64,000 bases of DNA from positions 1 through 64,000 of IMG/VR virus record IMGVR_UViG_3300045988_118194, one strand, 5' to 3'. The notes below the pieces were generated by a model. It was not told where the DNA came from. It did not search any database and worked only from the letters and a program-made list of their open reading frames with translations. Positions 4,936 to 60,912 of this stretch are shown piece after piece; position 1 is the stretch's first letter; every line of letters starts with the position of its first letter. This DNA comes from a virus. Position numbers and translations under genes: made by a program.

Positions 4936-5011
4936 CCAACAAAACCACCATACTTTAGAAGGTGGATGAATTGGTTTGATTAATTTTGAATCAAAATTAC
5001 AGATAAAAAAA

Positions 5012-6151
5012 ATGATTTCATACAAATACAACATCTATCATTCCAAGAAAACGAAGTATCTCGACAAAATGCTTCGAGAATGTTGTTTTGTATGGAATCA
5101 TGCTTTAGCTCTACAACGTAGATACTACAAACTGTTTGGAAAATATATCTCAGTTAGTAAAATGAAAAAGCATTTTGCAAAAAGGATAAAAAGAAATCTT
5201 CTTCATTCCCAAACAGTGCAAGAAATACTTGAACGTCTTGATGAATCTTATAATCGTTTCTTCAAGAAATTGGCTAAACGACCTCCTAAGTTTAAATCAC
5301 CGGAAAAATTCAATTCTTTTGTATTCAAACAAGGTGGGTTTACCCTGAATGGTAATTGTTTAACAATTAACAAAGGGAAGAAACGATTTAGATTTTCATA
5401 CAGTAGAGTCTACGAAGGTAATGTTAAACAAATTAGAATAGTTAGAGAAACATGCTATCGATATAGCCTGATAATTATTACAGATCATAATCTTATAAAC
5501 TCTTATAGAAAGACACATGATGGTGCATCTATAGGGTTGGATTTTGGCCTGAAAACTTATCTAACTAAAAGCGATGGTAGCAAAATTGATTCTCCACTAT
5601 TCTTCAAACAATATCAAAACAAGATTAGAAAACTAAACAAACGGATTTCTAATGCAAAGAAAGGATCCAACAATAGAAGAAGGAGACTGTTTGAACTCCA
5701 ACAAACGTATCGTAAAATAAACGATCTTCGATCGGATTTTCAATGGGGATTAGCACACCAGTTATGCAAACAATATGATTATATTTTTATTGAAGATCTA
5801 AACATTGAAGGAATGAAGCGTTTGTGGGGAAAGAAAGTTTCTGATCTCAGTCATTCTTCTTTTATTGACAAACTTACGTATGTTGCTTCAAAGTATGGAG
5901 TAACGATACACAAGATTGACAAATGGTATCCTTCTTCCAAAACTTGCGAATGTGGCTGCATTAATAAAGGACTGTCGTTACGCGACCGCACGTGGGTATG
6001 CCCGTCGTGCGGAGCGGTAAACGACCGTGATGTTCTTGCAGCCCGTAATATACTTCGGAAGGGCATTTCCGAATTGGAGAGCAAGAGTAATTCCAGCGAT
6101 ATTAATATCGGGGTTTCTTGCGTTTGTATCCAAGAATCCCATTTGCTTTAG
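5012..6151 (+). CDS. tnpB: TnpB (OMEGA RNA-guided RuvC endonuclease, IS200/IS605 OrfB family)
   Basis: N-terminal KYNIYHSKK...CCFVWNHAL resembles the TnpB N-terminus. RuvC-I GLDFGLKTY. RuvC-II IFIEDLNIEGMK. Zinc finger CECGC...CPSCG. RuvC-III NDRDVLAARNI. The track ORF starts at TTG 4976; the first ATG is at 5012. Confidence 0.8.
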   Translation: MISYKYNIYHSKKTKYLDKMLRECCFVWNHALALQRRYYKLFGKYISVSKMKKHFAKRIKRNLLHSQTVQEILERLDESYNRFFKKLAKRPPKFKSPEKFNSFVFKQGGFTLNGNCLTINKGKKRFRFSYSRVYEGNVKQIRIVRETCYRYSLIIITDHNLINSYRKTHDGASIGLDFGLKTYLTKSDGSKIDSPLFFKQYQNKIRKLNKRISNAKKGSNNRRRRLFELQQTYRKINDLRSDFQWGLAHQLCKQYDYIFIEDLNIEGMKRLWGKKVSDLSHSSFIDKLTYVASKYGVTIHKIDKWYPSSKTCECGCINKGLSLRDRTWVCPSCGAVNDRDVLAARNILRKGISELESKSNSSDINIGVSCVCIQESHLL

Positions 6152-14622: not shown

Positions 14623-15336
14623 ATGTACATCAATTTCAGACAACTTGCAGCATCAGACATGACTCCTAATGATCTTGCTAATCTTCTTGCCATAAGACAG
14701 AAGGATACGGTTATGATCGAAGCCATGCCGGAAGAAGATGCTGGGAGATATATAGAGCTTGGCCTGGTTGAGAAATTAAAATCAGGCGTGATGAGATTAA
14801 CCAACAAAGGAACGTCTTTTGTGAATTATATAGAGACACCGGAAATGACGGACGAGGTTCTGGAAACGTTGAAGATTATGATAGGAATGTACGAATCATA
14901 TTCAAAAGACATAGGTGTCAGCAGAAAAGAAGCGGAATCCAGATTGTGTTGGTTTATGGGTAACACCTCATTCAAGAAAAAGGTCATACTTCAGGTAACG
15001 GAATCTTATATAGCAGAGTCAGGAGATTATACAATGAGCTTATGTAACTTCATATGGAAACCGCCTTCTCAGGCTTTTTCAGTCCATATGAACCTTAAAA
15101 ATTCAAAGCTCTTTGACTTAATAGCTGAAAAATTTAAGATCGCTACCGAGCCTTATTTGGAGTCTAAGAAGAATAAGGAAATGGATTGGTTGTTTGCCGT
15201 ATCTAAATTGCCTACGCCGCCGGCTAAAGGAAATCCGGATTATTTGTTTACCGGAAGTTCGGAAACAGACAAAGAGCGATTGAAAAACATAAAAACGTAT
15301 TTATTTAACAAAATTAGAAAGCAATGGAAAAAGTAA
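14623..15336 (+). CDS. hypothetical protein (237 aa)
   Basis: ORF immediately upstream of the ACP homolog. Confidence 0.45.
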   Translation: MYINFRQLAASDMTPNDLANLLAIRQKDTVMIEAMPEEDAGRYIELGLVEKLKSGVMRLTNKGTSFVNYIETPEMTDEVLETLKIMIGMYESYSKDIGVSRKEAESRLCWFMGNTSFKKKVILQVTESYIAESGDYTMSLCNFIWKPPSQAFSVHMNLKNSKLFDLIAEKFKIATEPYLESKKNKEMDWLFAVSKLPTPPAKGNPDYLFTGSSETDKERLKNIKTYLFNKIRKQWKK

Positions 15337-15575
15337 GAATCAGAAAGATAATAGAGGATATAATTATTACTCAGTTTCTTAATTCGGAAATAGATATAGT
15401 TCATGAAGAAGATGTGACGTTTAAAGAACTTGGATTAGATTCTGTTGATCAAATTGAACTGGAAGTGATGGTGGAACAAAAATTCAATATTGTTATTATT
15501 GATTATGATATGGAGACCATCAAAGATATGACTGATCTTGTTTACAAAATAATAACAGAAGGGTATGGGAAGTGA
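15324..15575 (+). CDS. acyl carrier protein homolog
   Basis: 83-aa acidic protein. FKELGLDSVDQIELEVMVEQKFNI matches the ACP phosphopantetheine-attachment region (DSL/DSV serine). KIIED at the N-terminus also parallels ACP. Confidence 0.6.
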   Translation: MEKVRIRKIIEDIIITQFLNSEIDIVHEEDVTFKELGLDSVDQIELEVMVEQKFNIVIIDYDMETIKDMTDLVYKIITEGYGK

Positions 15576-16059
15576 CATAATTTTATGCATGGCTTTAATA
15601 GCGTCATTTGCTTTTGTTATACAGTTTTTGTTGTCGATATTAGGATCTGATCTGGATACGGATATTGACATTGACAGTGCTTCTGATTTAAGTATGTCTT
15701 TGTCGGACATCATATCATTCAAGGGCATAACACATTTTATTCTTGGATATAGCTGGACTACCTACTTTTCGGGTTCCCATTTAGTAGGGGTTGTGATAGG
15801 GTCGTTTTTCTTTATCGTTTTGTTTTACGTATATAAGTTACTTCTTAAGTTAAAACAAGAAATGGTGTACGAATGTCCGGAAGATTTAAATGGCAGAGAG
15901 GTGGAGATAGTATTTAGATCAGGGAAGAATCATTATATGGTAAATATTTCGAAAAATGGAAGACAAGAGCAAATGAGAGTAAGATGCTTGTCTGGAAAAA
16001 CCTACAAAAACGGCGACAAGGCGAATATAAAATATGAAGAAGGAGAATTAAGTATCTAA
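15565..16059 (+). CDS. NfeD-like membrane protein (short form: N-terminal TM helices plus a C-terminal soluble beta-domain)
   Basis: Two or three hydrophobic helices, then a soluble C-terminal region. Lies directly upstream of the flotillin gene, as in bacterial nfeD-flotillin operons. Confidence 0.45.
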   Translation: MGSDIILCMALIASFAFVIQFLLSILGSDLDTDIDIDSASDLSMSLSDIISFKGITHFILGYSWTTYFSGSHLVGVVIGSFFFIVLFYVYKLLLKLKQEMVYECPEDLNGREVEIVFRSGKNHYMVNISKNGRQEQMRVRCLSGKTYKNGDKANIKYEEGELSI

Positions 16060-16090
16060 TTTTTTTATCAACAATTAAATTTTAAAAGTT

Positions 16091-17791
16091 ATGACAACAA
16101 TCATGTACGTGTCAGCTATCTTAGCTGTAGTGATTATTTTGACAATCATCGGAGTCTTATCAAGGTATCGTAGATGTAAGCCTAATCAAGTCTTGGTCGT
16201 TTATGGTAAGACAGGTGGGGAAAAGAAATCGGCGAAATTATATCATGGTGGAGCGGCATTCGTCTTGCCTATTATTCAAAGCTATGATATTTTGTCTATG
16301 GAGCCTATGCAAATAGATTGTAGGCTCACCGGTGCTTTGTCGTCTCAAAATATCAGAGTGGATGTACCTACTACTATTACAGTAGCAATCAGCACAAATC
16401 CTGAAATTATGCAGAATGCAGCAGAAAGGCTTTTGGGGATGGATACTGAATCTACTGAAAATCTTATTACGGATATCGTTTATGGCCAAATGCGTTTGAT
16501 CATTGCTGAAATGACGATTGAAAAACTTAATTCTGACAGGGATGAGTTTTTGGATAAGGCAAGAAAAAACATTGATAACGAACTTAATAAGTTAGGCCTT
16601 TACCTCCTAAATATCAACATCAGTGACATCAGAGACGAAGCCGGCTATATCATGAATCTTGGCAAAGAAGCTGAAAGTAAGGCCCTGAACGAAGCACAGG
16701 CTAATATCGAAGAACAGGAAAAGCTGGGTGCTATTAAGATTGCTGTACAGCAAAAGGAAAAAGAAACGGCTGTAGCTAATACCCAAAAAGAGCAAGAGAT
16801 TCAAATTGCCTATACTGAAAAAGAAAAGGAAACGGTAGTAGCTGAAACAAAGAAAGAAAAAGAAGTAGCTTTGGCTTTAACCGATAAAGAAAAACAGATC
16901 GGTGTAGCTCAAGCCGATAGAGATAGGGCTGCGGTTATTGCAAAGACTTTGGCTGACAAAGAATCGGCGATTGCAAGATCTAAGGCAGAACTTGAGGTAA
17001 ACAAAGCTGAGGCTGAAAGAATGGAAGAAGTCGGAAAGAATAAGGCTGAAGCTGACAAGGAAGCGGCTATAGCAATACAAGACTCTGAAGCTCAGATTAA
17101 GAAGGCTGAGGCTGAGAAAAATGCGTCTATAGGATACAACAATGCCCAGAAGGAGGTTGCTGTGTCAGTATCAGAACTACAGATCATCAAAGCTCAATCA
17201 GAAAAGAAGGCCGGAGAAGAAAAAGTTAAATCGGAAGCGGCTGTAAAAACAGCAAAAGAGCTTGCCGACAAAGAAGTGGAAGAAGCTAAGGCTAAGAAAG
17301 TTCAGGCTGCGCTTAAGGCTGAAAAGATTGTGCCGGCTGAAACCCAGAAGGAAGAGGCTATCTTGCAAGCTGATGCTGAAGCAGAAAAGATTAAACGCCG
17401 GGCTGCCGCTGAAGCAGCAGCCAATTTGGCAAAAGCAGAAGCCGAAGCAAAGGCTATTAAGATGAAGTTGGAAGCAGAAGCCGAAGGTAAGAAAAAGTCG
17501 TTAATGGCAGAAGCCGACGGATTTAAGGCTATGGTGGAAGCAGCAGAATCCAATCCTCAGATAGCCATCCAGTACAAGATGGTTAATCAGTGGAAAGAAA
17601 TTGCTGGAGAACAGGTTAAGGCATTTGAGCACATTAACCTCGGAAATATCACGGTATTTGACGGCGGTCAGAACAGTACCGGTAATTTCCTTAACAATGT
17701 TGTTAAGACCGTCGCTCCGGCATTGGGAGTCATTGATCAGCTTCCGATTGCAGATACTTTAAAGAAGCTAAAAGGAGATGACAAAAAATAA
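16091..17791 (+). CDS. SPFH/band-7 flotillin-like protein (YqiK/FloA-like)
   Basis: N-terminal TM helix. SPFH-like CKPNQVLVVYGKTGG...GGAAFVLPIIQSYDILSMEPMQIDC. Long Ala/Glu/Lys coiled-coil repeat region typical of flotillins. Confidence 0.75.
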   Translation: MTTIMYVSAILAVVIILTIIGVLSRYRRCKPNQVLVVYGKTGGEKKSAKLYHGGAAFVLPIIQSYDILSMEPMQIDCRLTGALSSQNIRVDVPTTITVAISTNPEIMQNAAERLLGMDTESTENLITDIVYGQMRLIIAEMTIEKLNSDRDEFLDKARKNIDNELNKLGLYLLNINISDIRDEAGYIMNLGKEAESKALNEAQANIEEQEKLGAIKIAVQQKEKETAVANTQKEQEIQIAYTEKEKETVVAETKKEKEVALALTDKEKQIGVAQADRDRAAVIAKTLADKESAIARSKAELEVNKAEAERMEEVGKNKAEADKEAAIAIQDSEAQIKKAEAEKNASIGYNNAQKEVAVSVSELQIIKAQSEKKAGEEKVKSEAAVKTAKELADKEVEEAKAKKVQAALKAEKIVPAETQKEEAILQADAEAEKIKRRAAAEAAANLAKAEAEAKAIKMKLEAEAEGKKKSLMAEADGFKAMVEAAESNPQIAIQYKMVNQWKEIAGEQVKAFEHINLGNITVFDGGQNSTGNFLNNVVKTVAPALGVIDQLPIADTLKKLKGDDKK

Positions 17792-17798
17792 ATACAAT

Positions 17799-17820
17799 GG
17801 CCCAAGGTTACACTTGGGCC
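17799..17820 (+). terminator. GC-rich hairpin downstream of the flotillin gene (8-bp stem ggcccaag/cttgggcc) without a clear U-tract
   Basis: Perfect 8-bp stem with a 6-nt loop, 8 nt after the stop. Confidence 0.35.
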
Positions 17821-17852
17821 TAATTGAAGAAATAAAAGCAGCATTCATAGAT

Positions 17853-17868
17853 TTCCTGCCGGCAGGAA
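17853..17868. promoter_or_regulatory. 16-bp perfect palindrome TTCCTGCCGGCAGGAA (candidate protein-binding site)
   Basis: Seen directly in the intergenic region between the flotillin gene and the next ORF. Confidence 0.3.
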
Positions 17869-17998
17869 CAGTGCTTTACTAATTACGATATTTTTAACAT
17901 GGATTTTGGACAAGATTTAGAACCAGAAGAACTGACCAAGCATTATGATCAGTGTTATGGAATTGATTTTGAAACAGAAGAAGAGGAGGACGAAGAGT

Positions 17999-23193: not shown

Positions 23194-23823
23194 ATGGAAG
23201 AAAAATGGGCTGATATTGACGGATATGACGGATACCAAGTAAGCAATATGGGTAATATTAGAAGTCTGAAAAGCATGAAAATATTAAAACAGCAAGAAAA
23301 AGAAAATGGATATAATACTGTGTCTTTAAGAAGAGAGGGGGTGTTAAAACAACTCTATGTACATAGGCTTGTAGCATTGGCATTTTGTGAAAAAGAAGAA
23401 TGGAAAAATCATGTTGATCATATAAATTGCATAAGAAATGACAATCGAAGCGACAATTTAAGATGGTGCACTCCAAAAGAGAATTGTAATTTTCCACAAA
23501 CAAGAATAAACGCCTCTAAATCTTTAAAATTAGCAATGAATAGAGAGGATGTTAAAGAGAAACTTGCAAATTCGATGAAAGACGTTTTTAGCAGAAGAAA
23601 TGTAAAAGAAAAGATGTCGAAAGCATCAATATTGAATCATGAAAATGGATTATACGATCACTTAAAAAAAGAAGTTTTAAAATTAGATAAAGAGGGGAAT
23701 GTTTTAAAGAACTACGAATCGGTGTCATCTGTTGCAAATGACGGATATGATCCAAGTTTTGTATCAAAGGTATGTAGAGGCGATAAGTCCATAGCTTATG
23801 GATATATATGGAGATTTAAATAA
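23194..23823 (+). CDS. HNH homing endonuclease (NUMOD4 plus HNH_3 plus C-terminal NUMOD-like repeats)
   Basis: WADIDGYDGYQVSNMGNIRS (NUMOD4). YVHRLVALAF...HVDHINCIRNDNRSDNLRWCTPKENC (HNH). Repeated KEK-rich helix motifs at the C-terminus. Confidence 0.75.
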   Translation: MEEKWADIDGYDGYQVSNMGNIRSLKSMKILKQQEKENGYNTVSLRREGVLKQLYVHRLVALAFCEKEEWKNHVDHINCIRNDNRSDNLRWCTPKENCNFPQTRINASKSLKLAMNREDVKEKLANSMKDVFSRRNVKEKMSKASILNHENGLYDHLKKEVLKLDKEGNVLKNYESVSSVANDGYDPSFVSKVCRGDKSIAYGYIWRFK

Positions 23824-37361: not shown

Positions 37362-38582
37362 TTACTTTAATATAATCGGATGCCTCTTCCCTCTAATGAG
37401 TTTAAACTTTTTGCGTGAAACATCTTTTGAATTTTCTCCGTTGAAATCCCTGATATTGAAACTCCCTGATTTTCTCCTTCCATAAACAAAGAATATTTTA
37501 TTGTTATACAACACTTTATCAAACAACCTAAAACCGAAAACCTCAAAAGGAGCTTGATTGTTTTTCTTCTTCCCCCCTTTTAAAATTTTCATTTTATGTA
37601 TTTGTCTATTATGTCTACGAATTAAACGTTTTAAATATTGACGTTCGATTCGTTTCGCATTAATATTCTTAGAAATGACAAACGCGTCGGATGTATGGGA
37701 TTTTTCAATCCCATATTTAATCCGATTATGTTTCGTAATGTAACCAAACGTCATAAAAACTCTGTCGTATCTGGATTTTAACTCTTCATACAACCTCCAT
37801 TTCATAATTCCCATTACGGCTGCGTCGCGAAGCGACTTGCCTCTTCTGATCTTTAAATCTATATTACCTTTATGGTATTCTTTGTGACATGTTTCACATA
37901 AAGTTATAAGATTAGAAGGGGAATCCCCTCCGGTTTTTCGAGACTCAATATGATGAACATTCAGTATAGAATCTTTTGACTTGCCTTTACAATACTGGCA
38001 TTTATGTCCATCTCTTGCTAAAACATACTCCCTTGTGTTCCAAAACTCAAGTTGATCACCTTCCTGGTATTCTTTACCTGATATCTCAGGATTCTTAATC
38101 TTTTGAGTATCGAATTGAGCTACTTCAATAACAATACGAAATATTGGTAGTATAGAGCATACATTATCAATAACACGAATATGGGCGTCTATTTTGTACT
38201 TCACCGAAGGTGCTGTCCATCCTGGACGCTTGCTTTTTATTCTATTATTAAAACGAGGTTTTCTATATCTTAACCTGTTCCGTCTTGCTCTTCGTAGCTC
38301 CCTTCTGGTAGACAAAAGATCTACGATATCATTTCTAAGGATCACTTCACTACTGTAAAGTTCTTTGCTTTTCGTTGTAGCTGATAGACCAACATGCTTA
38401 GTTCCAGCATCAACGCCTAACACAATTTCTTGTTTGTAATCGGATGTGACGTACATTAATTTGATGGTAAACGGACATAGGTTCACAACGACTGCCTTTT
38501 TATCTTTAAGCAGTCTCCTAACCTTACCATGCCTCGTTGTTGGCATCATAGGTTTACCATTTATGTCTTGTACGTACACCAT
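37362..38582 (-). CDS. iscB: IscB (OMEGA RNA-guided nuclease; RuvC split by an HNH insertion; Cas9 ancestor family)
   Basis: N-terminal PLMP-like GKPMMPTTRHGKVRRLLK. RuvC-I VLGVDAGTKHVG. Arg-rich bridge helix RRELRRARRNRLRYRKPR. RuvC-II IVIEVAQFD. HNH HKCQYCKGKS...NVHHIESRKTGGDSPSNLITLCETCHKEYH. RuvC-III HTSDAFVI. Confidence 0.75.
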   Translation of the reverse strand: MVYVQDINGKPMMPTTRHGKVRRLLKDKKAVVVNLCPFTIKLMYVTSDYKQEIVLGVDAGTKHVGLSATTKSKELYSSEVILRNDIVDLLSTRRELRRARRNRLRYRKPRFNNRIKSKRPGWTAPSVKYKIDAHIRVIDNVCSILPIFRIVIEVAQFDTQKIKNPEISGKEYQEGDQLEFWNTREYVLARDGHKCQYCKGKSKDSILNVHHIESRKTGGDSPSNLITLCETCHKEYHKGNIDLKIRRGKSLRDAAVMGIMKWRLYEELKSRYDRVFMTFGYITKHNRIKYGIEKSHTSDAFVISKNINAKRIERQYLKRLIRRHNRQIHKMKILKGGKKKNNQAPFEVFGFRLFDKVLYNNKIFFVYGRRKSGSFNIRDFNGENSKDVSRKKFKLIRGKRHPIILK

Positions 38583-56984: not shown

Positions 56985-59839
56985 TATTTGGTCCTCCTTC
57001 TTCTTTTAGTTTCATCATCTTCTTCATTTAAACTTCTCAAGTAAGGTGTAGAATAATCACCCATATTCATCACATCCTGATTGCCTTGAACGTAAATAAT
57101 TTGACCACTTGGAAGCATTCTCATATTCGGGGCTATGGAAGCTATGGTATTCAACGATGTACGAACATTAAACTTATTCTGTATCTCGCTGTTTATACTA
57201 TCATAATAACGAGCAAGATTTTCATCCCTTATAGCCATAGCTTTCAACAACCCAGATTCATAACGTTGCCTTTCCGCTATGTTCTTATCGTCTGTCTGAA
57301 CATAAGCCATTTCATTGAATCTATCAGCTTCGTTTATTTGCCTTGCGTTACTGAAATTTACTTCATTAACGTACTTAGCTATATTGCTTCCAGCTATGGC
57401 GTTCATATTAGCCAGAATAGCAGCTCGCTGGGAGTCGGGCACGTCACCTACTGCGTCCAACTGAGCCGATGTCGCGCGGTTGAGCTCGTTGATATACTGA
57501 TCAGCAGATTGCAGAACCGGATCTATTCTCGGAGCCTGATGCCTTTCCAATCCCTCTATCTCCAAGCCTGTATCGAGCGTTCTCAGCATCTCCGGGAAGA
57601 TAGGACCGAACGCCGCCGGTCTGCCCTGTCCTTTAGGTCCGTTGTCTTCAACCACCTCCTCTGTATCGGTGTCGGTTGCAGTCGTAGGCGTACTTGCTTT
57701 CGGTTTTACCTCTATCCTTCCAGGAGATCCAATCTTAGGCGGTGTAAGGCCTGGTGCTATGGGACCGGCCTCAATAGGCTTCATTTCTGGTTTAACAGAC
57801 TCAAGAACGAAGTCTATTTCCGGCATTAACCCACTATCTCTTAAAGCAACAAACTTATTATAATCGGAGCCCAGAATCTTCTTAGCGGCATCAGATTTAT
57901 CACCAAATAAGTCAACATAATTCTTTATTCCTTTTTCGTTTAACAATCTTTTTTGCTCTGCCGAAACAACGTCCAACCCATAATAAGAACGAGTAGCTGT
58001 TGTCTGACCAAACTTATCATCTACGGCAAATGAATTATAAGCCTGATTCCCTCCGTAGCTTCCGGCGTCCTGGCCCCAGAATCCGTATTCATCTCTGAAT
58101 TTCTTGGCTGCATCAGCATTCGTAATAGCGCCTACATCAGCTAACGCCCACAATGCATTTAATTGCCTGTTGTATCCTTTCTGGAAACCTTCTGTATCAA
58201 AATCACCATCCGTATTGTACTTGTTAGCCCATCGGTTTATGTCGAGCAAATTAGATACCGCCTTATCATTTACCCTGCCGTATCCTAAATTGCTTCTATG
58301 TTGGAGATTCTGGTTGGCATTGACACTGGAATCAGGATTAAGGATCTGCTCACGACCACTAACATCAGATACAGTCATATTAAGAGTTCGTCCAAATAAC
58401 TGATTGATAAGCTTATTGTAGCCGATAGCATTCTTTCTAAGTTCCTCCAGCTCCTTCTGAGTAGGTCCACCTTCAGCCATTTTTCTGGTTTGCTTAACAT
58501 ACTCGTCATATATCCAGTTCTTAGCATCTGATTCTGCAATATTAAAAGCCTTAGCTTGTTTCTTTACCTGATTCAGATCAACAACCCCTCCATCCCTGAA
58601 AAAAGCATCCATCTTCTCGTTACGCTTAGATTCTTCCTGTTTGCCATAAACGATTTCAGCGAAAGAACGAAATTGTGCTTCAAGCTCGTCTATCTCTTTC
58701 TGGTTTTCATTGACGTACTTGGAAAGAATAGAAGCATTAAGATTAGATGTGTTTTTGTCTTTTACATCTTCATTTTTCTCTAATCTCTTATATACACGCT
58801 CCTGATCTTCGTACTTATCAGACAAACCAATCTTCTTCTTATATCGATCAAGGAGTGTAGCATACGTATCTTTTGACGTTGCCTTAATACCATAATTTTC
58901 TCTAACGTAAGAGGCAAACTCATCATCTATCTTACGATAATCGGAAACAATATAAGCCTCTGGCAAATCAACCGGAGTGCCACCATTTTCATGTCTGTTC
59001 CCTTTGGCTTCCATAGGCCCTACGGAGTCAGGAGTCAGCACGTACTCGCCTTTCTCTATCTCTACATTCGCAGCATCTTCCATAGACTTGGGAAGAGGAT
59101 AAATATATTCGCCGGTCATATCAGACGTATCTATCTTCTGACCGTTACCTAAATTCACGCCACCACCTTCACGTTCCCACTTGATGAATTGCTGCCGGCG
59201 CTCCTTGGCAAGTTTTTCCCTCGCTGCCTGCTCGTCTCTGCTGGCTGCATACGCAGCAGATGAAGCTCCCATGATATTACGGGTAAGACCTAATCCTAAA
59301 CTAACACCAGACAAGGCAGCTTGAGCCACATTAGCACCGACCTTATTACCGGCTCTTATCCGGCCAAGACTTGTACCGAACATTTGAGCTCTGCCGGTTA
59401 GATCGGGTGAATAATATGGGGTAGTCATAGGATCAAGAGGATTACCATCTTGGGAACGTTTTTCTTTAGAGGAATCAGCATCAACACCACCTACATTCAT
59501 TGCATTATCAACGACTGATTTCTCTACGTTTTTAACCATACCCCTATTATCAGCGAGATATCCTGCATATCCTGCATCATTGTTTTCAAAAAACGGATCG
59601 GATGTAGGCATACTACTAAATGGATTTTTCTCCCCCTCCTCTGTTTCTAAAATCACATCAGAAGGCATATATATATTCTGAATATCAGATTCACCCCATT
59701 TATTAACAGGCGTTCCATAATCAAGAATAGGCTGAGTAGAGGATACATTAATATCCTGTTTCTTATCCTGAACACTACCGCCAGGAGCGAATATCGGACG
59801 ATTTTTTATGATTCGTAATTTCATACTATCTTTTTTCAC
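56984..59839 (-). CDS. large hypothetical protein (951 aa; the track start is GTG, the first ATG is 5 codons downstream)
   Basis: Long ORF. Pro/Thr-rich linker region. Confidence 0.6.
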   Translation of the reverse strand: MKKDSMKLRIIKNRPIFAPGGSVQDKKQDINVSSTQPILDYGTPVNKWGESDIQNIYMPSDVILETEEGEKNPFSSMPTSDPFFENNDAGYAGYLADNRGMVKNVEKSVVDNAMNVGGVDADSSKEKRSQDGNPLDPMTTPYYSPDLTGRAQMFGTSLGRIRAGNKVGANVAQAALSGVSLGLGLTRNIMGASSAAYAASRDEQAAREKLAKERRQQFIKWEREGGGVNLGNGQKIDTSDMTGEYIYPLPKSMEDAANVEIEKGEYVLTPDSVGPMEAKGNRHENGGTPVDLPEAYIVSDYRKIDDEFASYVRENYGIKATSKDTYATLLDRYKKKIGLSDKYEDQERVYKRLEKNEDVKDKNTSNLNASILSKYVNENQKEIDELEAQFRSFAEIVYGKQEESKRNEKMDAFFRDGGVVDLNQVKKQAKAFNIAESDAKNWIYDEYVKQTRKMAEGGPTQKELEELRKNAIGYNKLINQLFGRTLNMTVSDVSGREQILNPDSSVNANQNLQHRSNLGYGRVNDKAVSNLLDINRWANKYNTDGDFDTEGFQKGYNRQLNALWALADVGAITNADAAKKFRDEYGFWGQDAGSYGGNQAYNSFAVDDKFGQTTATRSYYGLDVVSAEQKRLLNEKGIKNYVDLFGDKSDAAKKILGSDYNKFVALRDSGLMPEIDFVLESVKPEMKPIEAGPIAPGLTPPKIGSPGRIEVKPKASTPTTATDTDTEEVVEDNGPKGQGRPAAFGPIFPEMLRTLDTGLEIEGLERHQAPRIDPVLQSADQYINELNRATSAQLDAVGDVPDSQRAAILANMNAIAGSNIAKYVNEVNFSNARQINEADRFNEMAYVQTDDKNIAERQRYESGLLKAMAIRDENLARYYDSINSEIQNKFNVRTSLNTIASIAPNMRMLPSGQIIYVQGNQDVMNMGDYSTPYLRSLNEEDDETKRRRRTK

Positions 59840-59892
59840 AAAGATAAGAGAAACGAACGAGAAAATCCAACGTTATGGGATACGTTTAAAAA

Positions 59893-60912
59893 TCAATCAT
59901 GTACGGCAGACAAACCGCCCGAATCAGGATCATACTTAAGACCGCATGCCCGGCGATAGTTCTTAAGCGCTCTCTTGTACAAAAACAGCACTGTCTTGGA
60001 AACTATTTTCTTCATAGATTTGGTTAAAACCTCTTCTGTTGAAACAGACATCAGACAGCTATTCAAGAACGACCTGACATTGAAGCCAAACAAGATCTTC
60101 ACCATTTTTCTAAACGTTCTAAAAAGATATGATGCCGAAAGAGCCTTTAATCCATTGCGAGCCAATCTCTTATTTAAATACGAAACAGCCTTGTCGGATA
60201 GACATATCCTATTTTTTCCTTGACTGTCCACCTCTGACGAAAACCACGAATATAAAGTGGTAGGATGTTTCTTAAGGTGATTAATGAAAGAAGTCATTAT
60301 CCCTTCTTTTAAAGCCCTTTTATGGGCTACGCATGCAGCAATCTTCTCTTCTCTTTTCAAAGAGCTGTCAAGGCATCTAAACACCGTCCTATCGTCTCCG
60401 ATGAAATACTGAGGACGTTCTTCCTTGAACTTAGCCCGATAAGCGGCATATCCTTCCTTACGAAGCATATCTATCTGAGACCGGATATAGAACCTTACAC
60501 ACTTTTCTTCAGCCTCTTGCACGCTTTTAAGATAAGGAACTGACTTTCTTCCATATCGAAGATAGTCATAAACCATAGCCTCTATGAAGTCATTGTATGG
60601 GAAGAATCTTCCAAAACCAAAGTTCCAAACTATGAAACATCGCACTCTATCTTTCCAATAATCAGATATGAGAAAATTGCTACAATATCTCAACTTCCTG
60701 TCTTTCTGATAAAAATGATGAGTATGTTTGTCATAAAATAGATTAAAATATCTCAAATTGCCTAAACACTGACCGGCTGGACGGCGTACTACATTGTACC
60801 CTAAGTTGCTGAAGCTATTGTATATAACTTCTATCGGAGAGACCTGCTCTTTCTTAAAGAGCTTGTCGTGTAACTTGTGAGGATCTGTTATTTCTTTTAA
60901 CTTTGTGTCCAT
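59893..60912 (-). CDS. hypothetical basic protein (339 aa)
   Basis: ORF. K/R/Y/F-rich. Motifs HTHHFY and FIGDD noted, but not assignable. Confidence 0.5.
   Translation of the reverse strand: MDTKLKEITDPHKLHDKLFKKEQVSPIEVIYNSFSNLGYNVVRRPAGQCLGNLRYFNLFYDKHTHHFYQKDRKLRYCSNFLISDYWKDRVRCFIVWNFGFGRFFPYNDFIEAMVYDYLRYGRKSVPYLKSVQEAEEKCVRFYIRSQIDMLRKEGYAAYRAKFKEERPQYFIGDDRTVFRCLDSSLKREEKIAACVAHKRALKEGIMTSFINHLKKHPTTLYSWFSSEVDSQGKNRICLSDKAVSYLNKRLARNGLKALSASYLFRTFRKMVKILFGFNVRSFLNSCLMSVSTEEVLTKSMKKIVSKTVLFLYKRALKNYRRACGLKYDPDSGGLSAVHD

Follow-up and report, generated by a model that had tools for sequence, protein, structure and literature searches.

What is an acyl carrier protein (ACP) gene doing in a crAss-like phage, directly ahead of genes for a predicted membrane protein and a flotillin? 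The question is raised by a stretch of viral DNA of 64,000 nucleotides (nt) (positions 1 to 64,000 of IMG/VR record IMGVR_UViG_3300045988_118194; this whole stretch is referred to as the window), in which an initial annotation, made from the letters alone, had picked out an acidic open reading frame (ORF) of 83 amino acids (aa) as an ACP homologue. The window region is 96.9% identical to the crAss-like phage OR575929.1 (human gut, 151,256 bp), whose organism name reads 'csAssE-Sib' in GenBank and 'crAssE-Sib' in its paper, where it is placed in the proposed genus Epsilonunovirus of the epsilon crAss-like phages (PMC11054128). We propose, with a rough probability of 0.45, that the gene encodes a host-activated carrier which, in the infected cell, works alongside the membrane pair to affect lipid supply or the organisation of the membrane. 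The gene and its key codon are as follows.

15324..15575, plus strand: ACP homologue (PP-binding), 83 aa, identified by the ORF, Pfam, PHROG, PDB sequence matches and the existing annotation WOZ57347.1.
15441..15443, plus strand: TCT, codon 40, for the serine of the DSVD motif to which 4'-phosphopantetheine is predicted to attach, from alignment with solved ACPs and E. coli AcpP.

The ORF check on the window returned a frame of 83 codons with an ATG start at exactly these coordinates, and its product is acidic (D+E = 20, K+R = 9; isoelectric point (pI) 4.28), as the initial annotation had described. A search with the PP-binding hidden Markov model, which that annotation had proposed, passed the gathering cut-off (PF00550, 26.7 bits, E 6.8e-6; cut-off 20.8), and the protein was also matched by PHROG 5934, 'acyl carrier protein' (E 2e-8). 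When the ACP was compared with PDB sequences by phmmer, 116 chains were returned at E<=1, with solved ACPs matched at E of about 1e-5, and among the 60 listed of these 116 all were ACPs of bacterial, plastid or mitochondrial origin. Three alignments place the GLDSVD of the window ACP against GLDSLD or GADSLD, the attachment-serine motif of solved ACPs, so that its DSV serine is in register with theirs. The homology first proposed is thus upheld, and we regard the window ACP as a genuine ACP-family carrier protein with a predicted four-helix fold, judged from alignment to solved ACPs, the best-covered match spanning residues 6-77.

It is not a housekeeping AcpP, because all 16 NCBIfam ACP models scored far under their cut-offs (about 13-30 bits vs 65-146 or more); the best AcpP-type scores, with the TIGR00517 and PRK00982 models, were 30.3 bits vs 71 and 28.5 vs 70.45. 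A search of 1.84 billion representative proteins gave 86 matches in all, in which the sequence forms an isolated island: a phage clade of at least 77% identity is followed by generic carriers at 28-48% (E 6.5e-10 to 1e-3). Identity with cellular ACPs is about 27-40%.

Residues D39, S40, D42, E45 and E51 of the window ACP align with D35, S36, D38, E41 and E47 of E. coli AcpP. We take E. coli D35, D38, E41 and E47 to be the helix II residues that contact AcpS, as in the B. subtilis ACP-AcpS structure. D39, D42 and E51 are invariant across all the cassette types described below, and an invariant D60 is likewise common to the window ACP and the homologues in which Asp or Tyr takes the place of the serine; E45 is present in the window ACP and not in every type. 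The serine was followed in two samples. With a search pattern that left codon 40 free, TCT was found in 118/119 IMG/VR contigs, and in a sample anchored on a conserved 237-aa gene just upstream, and so unbiased for the ACP, Ser40 was found in 58 of 60 window-clade copies; it is kept in 97-99% of copies across both. In a clade farther off, made up of L297/L298 and three other loci, the ACP has 88 aa and just 36% identity, against 63-84% for the neighbouring genes; it keeps the motif LELDSLD, and NfeD-like and flotillin genes come after it here too. Nucleotide diversity of the ACP gene lies under that of its surroundings (pi 0.022 vs 0.054).

The genes around the ACP, and the segment that varies between loci, are listed here.

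14623..15336, plus strand: conserved 237-aa gene with a MarR-type winged-helix N-terminal domain and a helical C-terminal domain, the left border of a variable slot.
15565..16059, plus strand: short NfeD-like membrane protein, 164 aa, from predicted structure and gene order.
16091..17791, plus strand: flotillin, 566 aa (SPFH/Band 7 + Flot), from Pfam and a partial NCBIfam FloT match (1.7e-42).
16063..17892, no strand: flotillin presence/absence segment, 1.83 kb, from recurrent identical junctions in 31/143 loci (example L208).

The initial annotation had put the ACP immediately upstream of an NfeD-flotillin pair. Its position stands, the ACP stop overlapping the NfeD-like start by 11 nt, and so does the flotillin, in which both Pfam domains are above threshold (Band_7, 2.5e-25, 90.0 bits vs 23.6; Flot, 2.5e-9, 37.7 vs 27). 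The NfeD assignment carries a caveat: the 164-aa protein has no NfeD match in Pfam or NCBIfam (E<=1) or among PDB sequences, and the precomputed NfeD domain is found in 0/49 of its homologues, so the label 'NfeD-like' reflects structure and gene order only. The identity was recovered by structure search alone. In its AlphaFold2 (AF2) model (predicted local distance difference test score, pLDDT, 72), three transmembrane (TM) helices precede a C-terminal beta domain, and the protein has the short-NfeD layout of N-terminal TM helices, a C-terminal beta domain resembling the oligonucleotide/oligosaccharide-binding (OB) fold and an adjoining SPFH gene. Between TM1 and TM2, residues 28-45 form a conserved, strongly acidic DxDxD loop (LDTDIDIDSASD; pLDDT below 50), which could bind cations.

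IMG/VR, ENA/JGI metagenomes and Logan assemblies yielded about 380 related loci, and linkage was counted over 143 distinct ones. All three genes are present in 102/143 loci, ACP and NfeD-like genes lie together in 136/143, and 31/143 (about 22%) keep ACP and NfeD-like genes and lack flotillin, nearly all with the junction about 16062|17893; other deletions account for about 10/143. Because these 31 loci lack flotillin at nearly always the same breakpoints, flotillin is a 1.83-kb presence/absence segment, and the tight partner of the ACP is the NfeD-like gene rather than flotillin. In the 237-aa-anchored sample, a serine-bearing ACP is accompanied by the NfeD-like gene at 44/44 loci, and Asp or Tyr ACP-like genes are without it at 6/6. 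The ACP is the first gene of a block that is accessory and dispensable.

Each junction of the flotillin segment lies in a short T-rich run (left, TTTTTTTATCAACA; right, ATTTTTAACA), and fusions between the NfeD-like and flotillin genes are numerous (P0283, P0288, P0300, P0301). A GC-rich hairpin at 17799-17820 (GGCCCAAGGTTACACTTGGGCC; 8-bp stem, 6-nt loop) lies 8 nt past the flotillin stop, within the segment missing from flotillin-less loci, and could act in transcription termination or in recombination. A promoter and terminator scan with a sigma-70 model, probably unsuited to the likely host, gave sites not above those in shuffled sequence.

When 48 window ORFs were scanned with Pfam, the functions recognised were those of replication, recombination, methylases, HNH and TnpB proteins, and no phosphopantetheinyl transferase (PPTase), acyltransferase, ketosynthase, AMP-ligase or thioesterase was found. 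Nor is any PPTase or acyl-handling enzyme annotated in the whole 151-kb relative OR575929. The 237-aa protein, considered as a PPTase or acyltransferase, had no Pfam or PHROG match and an AF2 model that matches MarR-type winged helices only. Since no such enzymes were found in the phage, any modification or loading of the ACP falls to host enzymes; the initial annotation had likewise recognised no partner enzymes nearby and had expected reliance on the host.

On the reading that we favour, the ACP would probably be phosphopantetheinylated by a host AcpS-type PPTase after infection, and the holo-ACP would then take part, or compete, in the ACP-dependent lipid metabolism of the host. Its site of action would be the inner membrane, where it would work with the NfeD-like protein and, in phages that have it, flotillin, so that membrane lipid supply or microdomain organisation would be adjusted in the infected cell; the role of the cassette would be conditionally useful, not essential. 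Family membership, the retained serine and helix II acids, the linkage to the NfeD-like gene and the lack of phage acyl enzymes are consistent with such a carrier. The points that tell against it depend in part on what else is found at this locus and on how the serine varies.

The cassette occupies a variable slot of the Epsilonunovirus replication module, between the winged-helix gene and a PD-(D/E)XK exonuclease gene, and the 237-aa gene marks the left edge of this cargo hot spot. In three loci with flanks 93% identical (L210, L370, L372), the cassette is replaced by a different ACP-fold gene, 41% identical, in which the motif reads LAFDYLD, with Tyr for Ser, and no membrane genes accompany it; homology to this variant stops at window position 15364 and restarts at 17891. 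A sister clade has a 237-aa homologue of 60% identity, and the gene that overlaps it downstream encodes a PP-binding protein of 87-89 aa with LGFDDLD, Asp for Ser (33.9-36.7 bits); next come a DNA methylase gene and, where the locus extends far enough, radical SAM genes. Farther out, 237-aa homologues have unrelated small genes or the exonuclease gene directly downstream; the latter order is seen in a distant clade, whose homologue has about 41% identity with the query family member. IMG/VR scans with two of the distant homologues (P0239, P0251) gave no matches.

The sister cassettes were seen in some detail. L212/L213 (5675-8946), L215, L217 and L218 hold in this slot the Asp-type ACP-fold gene, a C5 DNA methylase gene and two small ORFs; the methylase of L217 has 635 aa, against the usual 277-279, and in L212 and L213 two radical SAM genes (228 and 346 aa) come after the small ORFs. 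This cassette may be a DNA-modification module.

Variation within the window clade is concentrated in one part of the ACP gene.

15438..15476, plus strand: codons 39-51, which cover the serine and the residues opposite ACP helix II in the alignment; no part of the ACP gene is more polymorphic.

ACPs are recognised by their partners through the helix II region. In 111 near-identical representatives of sequence clusters, 38 minor amino-acid alleles fall in residues 39-51 (13 positions) vs 33 in the other 70, and the density of polymorphic sites in these codons is about 2.3 times that of the remaining gene. In 32/111 representatives, F, P, Y or A stands in place of Ser40. Because the replacements occur beside both I41 and L41 and some lie on 140-150-kb contigs, we consider them real and recurrent; they are rare in the two unbiased samples (118/119 TCT; 58/60 Ser). 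The list of representatives over-samples rare alleles, since most of the sequences fall into two clusters (486 and 518 members). Other alleles of the patch, including L46P, E45V/K/T and six different residues in place of V41, recur on different haplotype backgrounds.

Three ideas about this variation were tried and set aside. Positive selection on the patch was rejected on a nonsynonymous:synonymous count of 10:6, not above the 29:9 found elsewhere in the gene. A diversity-generating retroelement (DGR) target, considered on account of the variable patch and of a DGR in the related phage, was ruled out by the missing template repeat: the ACP gene, compared by blastn-short with the window and with OR575929 stretches that together cover the record, gave only chance matches of <=18 nt. 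The spread of the variation over nucleotide positions, with no restriction to particular ones, also counts against a DGR. In S40P contigs, flotillin was split or deleted in 4/5 distinct contexts, but a coupling of serine loss to flotillin loss was not significant, as an intact flotillin is likewise missing from 48/133 loci with Ser40, and the samples lack independence. Possible causes of the pile-up of rare alleles are tuning of an interface, or selected inactivation that spares the overlapping downstream gene from polar effects. One locus, L139 (reverse strand), carries an S40Y ACP with about 13 further substitutions next to NfeD-like and flotillin genes nearly identical to those of the window, which suggests relaxed constraint after serine loss, or an allele swap.

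The initial annotation had named serine conservation as a check and homologues without the serine as evidence against an ACP. Conservation holds among orthologues, down to the one that is 36% identical; it fails in the LGFDDLD and LAFDYLD slot genes and in the rare but recurrent F, P, Y and A alleles.

These and further observations weigh against the host-activated carrier. Scores of about 30 vs 70 bits with AcpP models suggest that host enzymes may not accept the window ACP. The association of the serine with the NfeD-like gene covers only about three independent cassette types, serine-loss alleles recur on different backgrounds and on long contigs, and the whole block is deleted in natural variants. 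Asp is conserved in four diverged slot copies that all pass PP-binding, and because these Asp forms look selected, a prosthetic-group-independent role exists in the family. Co-occurrence with flotillin, which the initial annotation had suggested examining across related phages, also proved not to be general: besides the flotillin-less loci, no ACP adjoins flotillin at two further flotillin loci of phages (Vibrio phage KIT04, MT835492), and none is present at the one bacterial NfeD-flotillin operon, a Planctomycetia locus that was the sole return of a genome scan for flotillin relatives.

The alternative that survives these data best, although it appears somewhat unlikely, dispenses with the prosthetic group: the ACP fold would serve as an acidic binding module that titrates or inhibits host ACP-client enzymes, or as an adaptor, and the serine would be kept for reasons other than carriage. 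Keating, Carey and Cronan reportedly found in 1995 that apo-ACP is toxic in E. coli. Such a binder or decoy fits the Asp and Tyr slot homologues, which keep the fold family and the helix II acids, the recurrent loss of Ser40 and the lack of phage acyl enzymes. It also fits the polymorphism of the recognition-helix region and the inter-clade divergence of the protein (36% identity vs 63-84% for its neighbours), as expected for an interface that tracks its host. An irrelevant serine would, however, hardly be expected in nearly all copies and in the 36%-identical orthologue, the patch shows no increase in the nonsynonymous:synonymous ratio, and the Ser-less forms sit in other cassettes, without NfeD or flotillin, so they may differ in function.

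A more specific version of the host-activated carrier, which we consider unlikely as a whole, makes the ACP and the NfeD-like protein a functional pair not recognised before. Holo- or acyl-ACP would dock on the cytoplasmic OB-like domain and couple host fatty-acid or phospholipid supply to SPFH/flotillin microdomains, the phage thereby remodelling the host membrane, and the Asp and Tyr forms would be derived offshoots independent of the prosthetic group.

The gene could instead be a dispensable passenger, the decaying remnant of a captured cellular ACP carried along with NfeD-flotillin cargo and having little or no current function. Natural deletions speak for this: in P0121, ACP residues 1-80 are joined to the NfeD-like C-terminus; in P0123, residues 1-68 are joined out of frame to the flotillin 3' end; and in P0124, found in three samples, residues 1-65 are joined in frame to the last ~79 flotillin residues (deletion-variant loci L205-L207, 6001-6435). 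Nonsense or frameshift mutations affect about 7% of IMG/VR copies, serine-loss alleles occur, and the S40Y allele of L139 has changed while its neighbours have hardly done so. Yet >90% of copies have an intact ORF, the flanking genes are more diverse than this one, and the serine and acidic helix residues persist to 36% identity, all of which makes a mere passenger distinctly unlikely.

By analogy, the ACP might be a cofactor of the 237-aa MarR-like protein that modulates its DNA binding. Acyl-ACP is the co-repressor of FabT, a MarR-family regulator. The 237-aa gene overlaps the ACP start by 13 nt in the window, comparable overlaps (13-37 nt) are seen in the window clade and in the L297, L210 and L212 types, and an ACP-fold gene is the first cargo after the 237-aa gene in three cassette types. 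We nevertheless judge this quite improbable. The AF2 model of the 237-aa protein (pLDDT 86.5) has only MarR-type winged helix-turn-helix structural matches, over about 85 residues, and FabT is one of about 50 such generic matches, which are uninformative on ACP binding; the C-terminal helical domain is well predicted and has no structural match. In compact phage genomes neighbouring genes commonly overlap, and synteny extends over the whole replication module. Several 237-aa homologues (L295, L214, L388/L389/L391) have no ACP-like gene downstream, and across the 143 loci deletions take the ACP in some cases and the 237-aa gene in none.

Last, an acidic DNA mimic or anti-restriction protein is very improbable: the protein is small and acidic (pI 4.3) and its gene lies in a replication and recombination block near the PD-(D/E)XK exonuclease gene and one for a putative Lar-like zinc-finger protein, but such acidity is ordinary for ACPs, all significant similarity is to carrier proteins, PADLOC defence profiles gave no match for it and nothing meaningful for six genes of the block, and the conserved serine and membrane-protein linkage would be left unexplained. 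The initial annotation had offered three possible readings: manipulation of lipids or membranes is the best supported, delivery of an acyl group to a phage protein has no candidate acyltransferase, and the DNA mimic is favoured by acidity only.

Elsewhere in the window, an IS605-type TnpB/Cas12f-like gene (OrfB_IS605 and Cas12f1-like TNB domains) lies at 4976-6148 within the early/replication region; in OR575929, transposase or TnpB annotations occur only at other places (58986-60125 and 64190-65413). Two HNH endonuclease genes, at 23194-23820 and 37365-38582, comprise a NUMOD4+HNH_3 gene, which is located between genes for a dATP/dGTP diphosphohydrolase and a cytosine methylase, and an RRXRR+HNH gene. 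Both are likely mobile homing elements.

In OR575929, the ACP orthologue WOZ57347.1 already carries the annotation 'acyl carrier protein' and is followed by a 'transmembrane protein' and a 'flotillin family protein'; the ACP call itself is therefore not new. The crAssE-Sib paper makes no mention of ACP, flotillin, lipid or membrane (PMC11054128). Our literature search found no description of the ACP/NfeD-like/flotillin arrangement and no reported link between NfeD, flotillin and ACP, and the arrangement appears confined to this phage lineage. What is new here is the previously unreported gene context, phage ACPs as such being known already.

The ACP sits in a very abundant human-gut phage lineage with hundreds of sequenced variants. 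Its natural variants, with or without flotillin, with cassette deletions, with serine loss and with Asp or Tyr sisters, make a practical system for separating a carrier from a protein-binding module, and the same natural series is suited to asking whether carrier proteins link to NfeD/SPFH membrane scaffolds. If the gene is merely a host-derived passenger, the result is ordinary, and a phage ACP alone would not surprise a specialist.

Compared with the bacterial type II ACPs (AcpP; PF00550, TIGR00517/PRK00982), the window ACP is similar in its length of about 80 aa, its pI of about 4, the DSx serine in register and the helix II acids. It differs from them in its identity of about 27-40%, its scores of about 30 bits vs about 70, the lack of fab genes nearby and its place in a phage-only island. 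We know of no stand-alone phage ACP with a tested function, although such genes are scattered through phage genomes. Like the other phage stand-alone ACPs (PHROG 5934; g153 of Yersinia phage fHe-Yen9-04; the stand-alone ACP modules of flavobacterial jumbophages, PMC13573597), it is a small ACP without a cognate synthase and of the auxiliary or moron class. Unlike them, it belongs to a ~151-kb crAss-like phage and not to a jumbo myovirus, and its gene overlaps that of an NfeD-like protein, which is followed by flotillin. The nearest GenBank phage ACP has 41% identity over 49 residues.

The genes behind it resemble the NfeD-flotillin operons of bacteria (B. subtilis yuaF-floT type), in which a short NfeD-like protein (TM plus C-terminal OB-like domain) lies directly upstream of an SPFH/flotillin gene, an order also found in the Planctomycetia metagenome-assembled genome; the phage version differs in having an ACP in front, which the bacterial example does not, in its lack of Pfam NfeD similarity and in its optional flotillin. 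Closest in setting are the Ser-less slot homologues of sister Epsilon crAss-like phages. They differ from the window ACP in the Asp or Tyr at the serine and in what lies downstream, which is DNA methylase and radical SAM genes or nothing and never NfeD/flotillin; they share with it the slot, the overlap with the 237-aa gene, the fold family and D39/D42/E51/D60.

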